Positions 61,896 to 62,849 of a DNA stretch of 64,000 nt are shown here, one piece after another. The DNA comes from Escherichia coli. Its GTDB lineage: Bacteria; Pseudomonadota; Gammaproteobacteria; Enterobacterales; Enterobacteriaceae. The notes beneath the pieces were generated by a model, which saw nothing but the letters and a program-made list of their open reading frames with translations, had not been told where the DNA came from and made no database searches. Location: the NCBI RefSeq assembly GCF_013122565.1, contig NZ_CP053258.1; one strand, 5' to 3'. Each line of letters opens with the position of its first letter. The first letter of the stretch is position 1. The position numbers and the translations under genes are program-made.

Positions 61896-62849
61896 TCAAC
61901 CACGGGATAATCTTGTTTCTATTCCCTGAACTCTTTCGTCTATTAACCTTTCAATAACAGATATTTTATCTGACTTGTAAAATTCAACCAGAAAATCCAG
62001 ACGCTCTTTATGCGTATCACTGATAGACTCCCGTTCCCGTTTTTCAGAAAGTTTACGTCTGAAGTTTTTTTGGTAAAACGCTTTATTTAATTTCTTTACC
62101 GCTTTCTGCTGGAGATCATCATTCGCTGACCATAAATCCAGCATGGCATAAACGGCGTGATAGGTTTCTACACTATTCAGTGGTTCCGGGATCTGAACGG
62201 GGTCCAACTGGCTTCCTGTATTACTACCGTGCTCTTTCTGGAATTTATTAATGTAATTATAAGCCCATATCCAGACTTCGTCATTATCCTCATTAAGCCA
62301 GCGTAATTTTATTCTCTGATGTTCATTTGCCCTCCAGAATACAAGCCTCTCATATAGCCACTGTCTCATCAACGGTGCCTGATTAGTCTCAATATTAATA
62401 TAGTCCAGTAATGCAACGATGATTGAGTATCTTTCGCTATGGCTTGCAGGAGAATCTGTTATTCCGGCTTTCTGATACCAGTTAATGTTTAAATTTGTGC
62501 CCAGCTTTTCGTTAATTGACTCCATACAGCGGTAATCAAGACACATCACGCCCCATAGCCAGAACGTCGCTCTTTCATTTTCTTTTAACCAACTAAAATA
62601 TTTCTCCGGCAGAAGCATCGTATTAATCGACAGCTCCAGTGAGCGAATAAAATTACTTCGCTGAATGGGATCGGGATACCCGGCCTCGAGGGCTGTATTA
62701 ATAATTCTCTCCGAAAGAGATGTATCTGGATTGTTCCCGTCAAACGCAAATTGATTTGCTCCCTGAATGTTTTTCCTGATGTACCAGAAAAGAAACCTGC
62801 TGGTTCGGATGTCCTTCACTGCTATTGATGAGCGCACATTAACGGCCAT
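61896..62849 (-). CDS. hypothetical protein, element cargo
   Basis: 317-aa W-rich ORF with no motif I can assign; lies in the variable slot between the YagK-like and DUF932 genes. Confidence 0.5.
   Translation of the reverse strand: MAVNVRSSIAVKDIRTSRFLFWYIRKNIQGANQFAFDGNNPDTSLSERIINTALEAGYPDPIQRSNFIRSLELSINTMLLPEKYFSWLKENERATFWLWGVMCLDYRCMESINEKLGTNLNINWYQKAGITDSPASHSERYSIIVALLDYINIETNQAPLMRQWLYERLVFWRANEHQRIKLRWLNEDNDEVWIWAYNYINKFQKEHGSNTGSQLDPVQIPEPLNSVETYHAVYAMLDLWSANDDLQQKAVKKLNKAFYQKNFRRKLSEKRERESISDTHKERLDFLVEFYKSDKISVIERLIDERVQGIETRLSRG

Follow-up and report, generated by a model that had tools for sequence, protein, structure and literature searches.

What a gene for a 317-aa protein with no readily recognisable motif does inside a CP4-type island is the question raised by the open reading frame at 61896-62849 (minus strand), here called X317, in the 64,000-nucleotide stretch of Escherichia coli DNA that was analysed (the window). 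An earlier note on this DNA had placed it in a slot for swappable cargo and proposed that it is a single-gene defence or abortive-infection factor. The present analysis favours a different answer, to which we give about an even chance: that X317 is an autoregulating DNA-binding regulator of CP4-57-like islands and not a passenger. The gene and its immediate surroundings consist of the following features.

61896-62849, minus strand: X317, a 317-aa open reading frame with an ATG start, taken from the list of open reading frames; member of an uncharacterised family of ~300 aa.
62857-62860, minus strand: Shine-Dalgarno sequence GAGG, 7 nt ahead of the X317 ATG.
60841-61659, minus strand: DUF932 gene, the next backbone gene, co-directional with X317, 83% identical to K-12 YfjQ and annotated in locus L001.
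62850-63441, no strand assigned: divergent intergenic region of 592 bp between X317 and the YagK-like gene, the place of cargo insertion in relatives.
63442-64000, plus strand: YagK/YfjJ-like gene with HUH-type motifs, cut by the window end; conserved divergent partner of X317.

The location of X317 between the YagK/YfjJ-like gene (from 63442, plus strand) and the DUF932 gene (60841-61659, minus strand), as described in the earlier note, was borne out, and so were the Trp-richness of its product (11 residues, 3.5%, roughly twice the usual E. coli level) and its AT-rich non-coding flanks. The latter, put at about 235 and 590 bp, measure 236 bp (61660-61895, 36.9% GC) and 592 bp (62850-63441, 36.7% GC), and neither contains an open reading frame of at least 60 aa. 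The GC content of X317 itself is 40.9%, versus 49.6% in the neighbouring backbone genes (57278-61659). X317 is found at ≥95% nucleotide identity in 217 of 5426 complete E. coli genomes, where the annotation is always 'hypothetical protein', and its dN/dS is 0.10 in comparison with an 82%-identical orthologue; X317 is a real gene under purifying selection. In strain 503025 (L001; NZ_CP025892.1), an X317-DUF932-RadC-CbeA-CbtA block nearly identical to that of the window is located at tRNA-Sec (selC), unlike in the window, where the block adjoins nanM/nanS-like genes, and one copy of the module resides on a 94-kb plasmid (NZ_AP023207.1). The module therefore occupies several sites. No Rfam family was found in the region 56000-64000.

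The position of X317 within the islands was compared in 18 independent loci encoding homologues with ~25-82% identity to the window protein, derived from E. coli, Klebsiella IncFIB/HI1B plasmids, Enterobacter, Morganella, Hafnia, Siccibacter, Tenebrionibacter, Superficieibacter, and metagenomes; a genome scan with subfamily alignment A4 returned only six loci. The homologue is divergent from a YagK/YfjJ-like gene in all 18, the partner being recognised by Pfam or tblastn in 16 loci and by a family HMM aligning through the H-x-H in the last two. Wherever the flank allows, the homologue is also the first gene of a co-directional arm composed of genes for a GTPase (YfjP-like), a WYL protein (YfjR-like), DUF932, an antirestriction protein, RadC, DUF987, CbeA, and CbtA. 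Because the same position, divergent from the YagK-like gene, is kept in 18/18 loci, X317 is not cargo. Exceptions are CP4-57 and CP4-6 of K-12, in which the family HMM detected no homologue on six-frame translations. Both of these islands retain yfjJ/yagK although they are without X317, and have either lost the gene or never had one. Two other K-12 proteins were considered and rejected: PerR, whose gene takes the corresponding place before ykfA, shows no sequence relationship to X317, and YfjH (318 aa, adjoining alpA) gave a BLASTP E value of 5.6 and an hhalign probability of 0.3%.

The cargo itself is found around X317. Between the YagK-like gene and the X317 homologue, an OLD/AriA-like ATPase of 656-658 aa (PADLOC AriA, 1e-66; Pfam AAA_15, 4e-80) is encoded in L009 (4400-6370) and L012 (3883-5859), a 149-aa open reading frame in L002, and an IS66 element is present in L020; the YagK-to-DUF932 interval of K-12 CP4-57 contains abpBA, yfjM, and rnlAB. 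At the outer island end, the window has an AbiE pair (57278-58682, minus strand; AbiEii, 315 aa; AbiEi, 154 aa) just beyond a DUF4942-like gene (58683-59540) and CbtA/CbeA, and the same slot in relatives is filled with a retron-type HNH plus AAA ATPase (L001, near-identical E. coli locus) or Mrr/McrA-like genes (L016/L017). Beyond AlpA, other loci carry GmrSD, a dynamin-like/AAA_15 set, and Lamassu or HsdM. Cargo slots accordingly lie in the YagK-X317 interval and beyond CbtA and AlpA, and X317 is a conserved anchor at the cargo-slot edge, a fixed and fast-evolving backbone gene of CP4-57-like islands. The idea of a swappable-cargo slot stands for the interval, which does hold cargo in CP4-57, L009, and L012, but not for X317, whose position is fixed in 18/18 loci. 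With a median pairwise identity of 30.6%, X317 has diverged more than any other gene of the module (YagK, 42.5%; CbtA, 58%; RadC, 60%; CbeA, 71%; DUF932, 77%), and such fast divergence combined with a dN/dS of only 0.10 is a pattern typical of element-specific regulators. Near the island, with the nanM/nanS-like genes in between, a dense defence block occupies 32521-53880 of the window, comprising genes for a type IIG RM/DrmMI-like protein (1638 aa), a DrmD/SNF2-like helicase (952 aa), DruE (2107 aa) and DruH (1119 aa) of Druantia III, and ZorA/ZorB/ZorE of Zorya II.

These features bear directly on the proposal that X317 is a cargo gene acting on its own in anti-phage defence or abortive infection, or in anti-defence. 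Its low GC content and AT-rich flanks, its standing as the fastest-diverging gene of the module, the defence-rich surroundings (AbiE, and the block with Zorya II, Druantia III, and type IIG/DISARM-like genes), and the defence genes in the YagK-DUF932 interval of CP4-57 and L009/L012 are all compatible with such a role. However, a position fixed in 18/18 diverse elements is unlike that of cargo, at a dN/dS of 0.10 diversifying selection is not apparent between close orthologues, and no match to X317 was found in the phage collection. A search against the PADLOC-DB v2 defence models yielded no family for the window protein at E ≤ 1, whereas the neighbouring AbiEi and AbiEii scored 5e-53 and 5e-128, respectively, in the same library; neither a catalytic nor an effector domain was recognised, and the protein ends in a putative DNA-binding tail of the ribbon-helix-helix (RHH) type described below. 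As recognisable defence genes are moreover present elsewhere in the elements, the defence candidacy put forward in the earlier note is not supported, and we regard it as improbable.

The window protein has no match in Pfam (even at E ≤ 10), PADLOC, PHROGs, or NCBIfam; the sole library match, to DNA polymerase III theta (E, 0.029), was well below the cutoff of that model and was treated as noise. Homologues were nevertheless collected in number. A word-indexed search gave 12 close clusters at 90% identity, all from Enterobacteriaceae, and an exhaustive phmmer search gave 187 clusters at 50% identity, mostly from Gammaproteobacteria and all unannotated, the full-length members of which have 285-370 aa with no fusions or extra domains. 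The 86 matches obtained in AFDB50 by Foldseek belong to the same family, are nearly all named 'uncharacterized', and are distributed in Enterobacterales, Vibrio, Aeromonadales, Oceanospirillales, Entomomonas, and one Alcaligenes. The phage collection gave no match, and the family was not found described in the literature searched, which covered the accession of the protein, yfjJ/yagK, backbone genes of CP4-57, and 'inovirus Gp2' with ribbon-helix-helix. The family, absent from Pfam, NCBIfam, and PHROGs, is newly defined here. Two parts can be distinguished in the protein.

62130-62825, minus strand: N-terminal all-alpha domain with tandem Trp-containing helical repeats, acidic (pI 5.5).
61914-62048, minus strand: RHH domain, residues ~268-312 (SEKRERESISDTHKERLDFLVEFYKSDKISVIERLIDERVQGIET), predicted from weak family-profile matches to Pfam, PDB, PHROG, and NCBIfam entries.

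The AF2 model built with a deep alignment supplied has a pLDDT of 93.9 and a pTM of 0.84, and no convincing fold match in the PDB was found for its first ~260 residues. An internal repeat is evident between residues 42-104 and 136-202 (hhalign probability, 97%; E, 1e-11), with a third, weaker copy. Each repeat unit bears the signature 'F-x-W-L ... W-x-W', which accounts for the richness of the protein in Trp.

The C-terminal part differs from the remainder in charge, residues 245-317 being basic (pI 9.8) and the N-terminal remainder acidic (pI 5.5). When family members were scanned singly against Pfam, 30 of 101 matched RepB-RCR_reg and 12 of 101 matched RHH_1 at E ≤ 0.1, three of the 101 reaching E ≤ 0.001. 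Family profiles searched against the PDB aligned with SvtR (2kel; E, 0.008-0.017), CopG (E, 0.02), and the RHH of MatP, for which hhalign gave an E value of 9e-4 with the RHH segment as the only aligned part, and some family members match Arc-like repressors in PHROG and the RepA/CopB and RelB models of NCBIfam. All these RHH matches are individually weak, and all fall on the same residues (~265-312). Inspection of the alignments revealed the order strand, helix, turn with an S/N cap, and second helix in this segment; the window sequence 'KSDKISVIERLI' aligns with 'G(M)RISDVLEKLI' or 'KKINEVLExLI' of the relatives, Leu284, Leu302, and Ile303 are conserved across the family alignments, and both the S/T/N cap and the hydrophobic pattern are present. 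Residues 271-277 appear as helix or coil in the AF2 monomer model. Judging from family-profile matches (E, ~0.01), each of them weak, the C-terminal ~50 residues of X317 are predicted to form an RHH DNA-binding domain. The statement in the earlier note that the protein has no recognisable motif thus applies to library searches with the window protein, but not to family profiles, which uncovered the C-terminal RHH; likewise, clear homology to a characterised non-defence protein, which that note had named as grounds for abandoning the defence role, is found at the level of the RHH domain and not beyond it. This combination of three helical repeats with an RHH at the C-terminus, and its strict pairing with YagK-type genes, appear to be undescribed in the databases and literature searched.

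If X317 is a DNA-binding protein, its target may be sought in the DNA next to the gene, and two elements stand out upstream of its start.

62920-63045, minus strand: candidate operator array of five same-orientation repeats sharing a CTAC/CTAT core, identified by word enrichment.
62897-62904, minus strand: GTCATAAT, a -10-like box identified from invariant columns in alignment A5.

Among words in the 200-nt upstream regions of 14 homologues, CTACG, ACTAC, and CTAC are the most over-represented, the last being observed 51 times against 15.4 expected (z, ~9.5), although these loci are related by descent and shuffle statistics therefore overstate the significance of such words. The five candidate operator repeats of the window, TATTGCTACGG, TATTACTACTT, TATTACTATGG, AAAACTACGT, and TTTTCTACGG, are spaced by 31, 21, 22, and 39 nt, and in their region (62920-63045) CTACG is clustered more densely than anywhere else in the 64-kb window. 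A non-coding block that contains GTCATAAT and CTACG sites is conserved in four elements, the proteins of which are 46-100% identical to that of the window. A consensus promoter scan called no promoter for X317 and no good -35 sequence was found; the CTAC site closest to X317 falls at the -35 place relative to the GTCATAAT box. In a sister subfamily, a palindrome CTAC-N0-3-GTAG is present in 8 of 17 loci, -28 to -34 relative to the ATG; CTAC-N0-5-GTAG palindromes occur otherwise just twice in the ~304 kb examined. Also present in this region, ~110-200 nt upstream of the homologue in L002, L007, L010, L012, and L013, are iteron-like AAAACC runs ~11 nt apart, AAACC being the fourth most enriched word upstream of the 14 homologues.

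On the opposite side of the gene, two further elements separate X317 from the DUF932 arm.

61847-61877, minus strand: hairpin with a perfect 14-bp stem, 19 nt past the X317 stop, terminator-like with no canonical U-tract.
61816-61835, minus strand: box TTTCAG-N3-CTATAT(C/T)AC, candidate promoter for the DUF932 arm.

The hairpin was not called by a terminator scan, and hairpins of unrelated sequence are located at the equivalent place in L016, L003, L005, and L018. A regular-expression search found the box, TTTCAG-N3-CTATATTAC, in 10 of 14 loci, among them that of the window, at distances of 21-250 nt past the stop, and L012 has a one-base variant. The 14-bp-stem hairpin, the 236-bp spacer, and the conserved promoter-like box for the downstream genes make it plausible that X317 is an independent transcription unit, as suggested in the earlier note. 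In L002, L009, L010, L013, and L018, a TTTCAG-N3-CTATATTACC box is located ~60-260 nt past the homologue stop, and a conserved, terminator-like hairpin, AACGGCAGC-AGAAAT-GCTGCCGTTTTGTTATTT, lies within ~10 nt of it; the window keeps the TTTCAG box without this hairpin. The box and hairpin together could constitute a leader, an attenuator, or a small RNA ahead of the backbone arm.

The reading of X317 as a regulator is supported by the putative RHH domain, the uniform architecture of the family, the position kept in 18/18 loci, the upstream CTAC words, the palindrome of the sister subfamily, the conserved non-coding block, and the hairpin and spacer that would make X317 a separate transcription unit. 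In the mechanism that we propose, two C-terminal RHH domains would pair to form a DNA-reading β-ribbon, and the ribbon would bind CTAC-core sites just upstream of the X317 start, which may be the direct repeats in the window element and the ACTAC-N0-3-GTAGT palindrome at -28 to -34 in the sister subfamily. Such binding would autoregulate the X317 promoter and probably set transcription across the divergent yagK-alpA / X317 control region, while the N-terminal repeats might mediate oligomerisation of X317 on the sites or provide the docking point for a signal or a partner protein. X317 would be the protein that binds the CTAC sites, and its effect may be either repressing or activating. The predicted DNA-reading strand differs between subfamilies (RESISD versus KKALNTYL) while the CTAC core is common to both, so that YagK, AlpA, or a host factor could bind CTAC instead. 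A more specific version, to which we attach a rather small chance, is that X317 is a sensor-repressor, in which the RHH would keep the divergent control region closed until a phage or plasmid protein binds the helical repeats and releases it, leading to AlpA/YagK-driven excision and replication or transfer.

The divergent partner suggests another role. The YagK/YfjJ-like gene is annotated in RefSeq as 'inovirus Gp2 family' in near-identical E. coli loci, and the family alignment conserves RVDL, LRYxWVRE, HYHxxLLLN, and YLaK, of which HYH and YLaK fit a putative HUH endonuclease. X317 could then be an origin-binding accessory factor that helps or controls nicking by this enzyme and starts replication or transfer of the excised island. 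The invariable pairing with a YagK-like gene bearing HYH and YLaK, the best Pfam and NCBIfam matches to RHH families of replication control (RepB-RCR_reg and RepA/CopB), and, in the shared region of relatives, the iteron-like AAAACC repeats ~11 nt apart and conserved ATATTAC motifs are what this role would predict. However, the sequence divergence of X317 and YagK is weakly correlated (Spearman, 0.22), and no specific X317-YagK pairing can therefore be claimed; CP4-57 and CP4-6 keep yfjJ/yagK in the absence of an X317 homologue; neither a nick site nor an origin hairpin was identified, and no literature was found on nicking by the YagK family or on replication of these islands. We consider the accessory role unlikely, and it overlaps with the regulator reading because RHH proteins of this kind usually autoregulate as well. 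An ATATTAC-N4-5-CCGACA motif lies near the start of the YagK-like gene in L003 (7580), L007 (7261), L011 (7370), L018 (1125), and L019 (6726), and its counterpart in the window, at ~63285-63305, is AATATTAATACCGGCA. This motif resembles the CTATATTAC box 3' of X317 as well as the TAATATTAC sites nicked by some HUH Rep proteins, and could be a promoter or an origin.

The similarity to MatP, together with the array of sites, would also suit a DNA-organising or segregation protein of the MatP or ParG type, one that would bridge or compact island DNA, whether integrated or excised as a circle. The MatP profile alignment spans the helical bundle and the RHH in the same order, and the multiple same-orientation sites are spaced by ~2-4 helical turns. 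The similarity is, however, not significant outside the RHH (E, 0.83 over the full span, and hhalign aligns the RHH only), no ParA-like gene adjoins X317, and the sites are clustered at the 5' end of X317 itself rather than dispersed, so that we consider this role very improbable.

The closest resemblance is to the small replication repressors CopG, RepB-RCR_reg (PF10723), and CopB(RepA), which gave the best profile matches and share with X317 the RHH fold, a location beside an HUH-type initiator gene, and repeated promoter sites. They are, however, single-domain proteins of 45-90 aa usually co-transcribed with rep, whereas X317 has 317 aa with a 260-aa repeat domain and is divergent; with no Pfam match and this extra domain, it does not belong to the small CopG/RepB-RCR_reg repressors. 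The relaxosome proteins TraY, TrwA, and NikA also place an RHH beside an HUH enzyme and a repeat-filled non-coding region. At oriT, these proteins combine origin binding with autoregulation, and CopG acts at the rep promoters of RCR plasmids. In contrast to the relaxosome systems, neither a relaxase, a coupling protein, nor an oriT was identified here, sizes and domains differ, and there is no sequence match. MatP, a host protein encoded on the chromosome, has 150 aa, a coiled coil at its C-terminus, and matS sites that are dispersed; only its RHH part aligns with X317 with any confidence. Nor does X317 group with the RHH antitoxins of type II systems: its next gene is DUF932, 236 bp off and past the hairpin, and the gene after the homologue in relatives encodes a GTPase or another protein and is 115-472 bp away.

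At the level of whole elements, CP4-57/CP4-6 and the Pseudomonas islands with IntY, AlpA, 'inovirus Gp2-like', RadC, and YqaJ have in common with the present islands a set consisting of YagK/Gp2-like, AlpA, DUF932, RadC, antirestriction, CbtA/CbeA, and defence cargo (PMC12595487), but CP4-57 and CP4-6 are without an X317 homologue and the 2025 study of the Pseudomonas islands, in which core functions are listed as unknown, describes no such gene (PMC12595487). In enterobacteria, islands of the CP4-57 type count among the most frequent carriers of anti-phage systems and toxin-antitoxin genes. Conserved, unannotated, and paired with the HUH-type gene of these islands, X317 would be a concrete candidate for a control switch, and the cargo slots mapped around it aid defence-gene mining in such islands. 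As functional analogues only, Stl of SaPI and the Arc and Mnt repressors may be considered, which are likewise encoded by stand-alone, element-specific, fast-diverging genes for DNA-binding proteins, divergent from excision or replication genes. Arc-like PHROG families match the C-terminus of some X317 family members. Stl is of the helix-turn-helix type and Arc and Mnt are small proteins, whereas X317 is predicted to be of the RHH type and has 317 aa; if the sensor-repressor version is true, X317 would represent an induction switch resembling Stl but with a new protein architecture, in defence-carrying islands.
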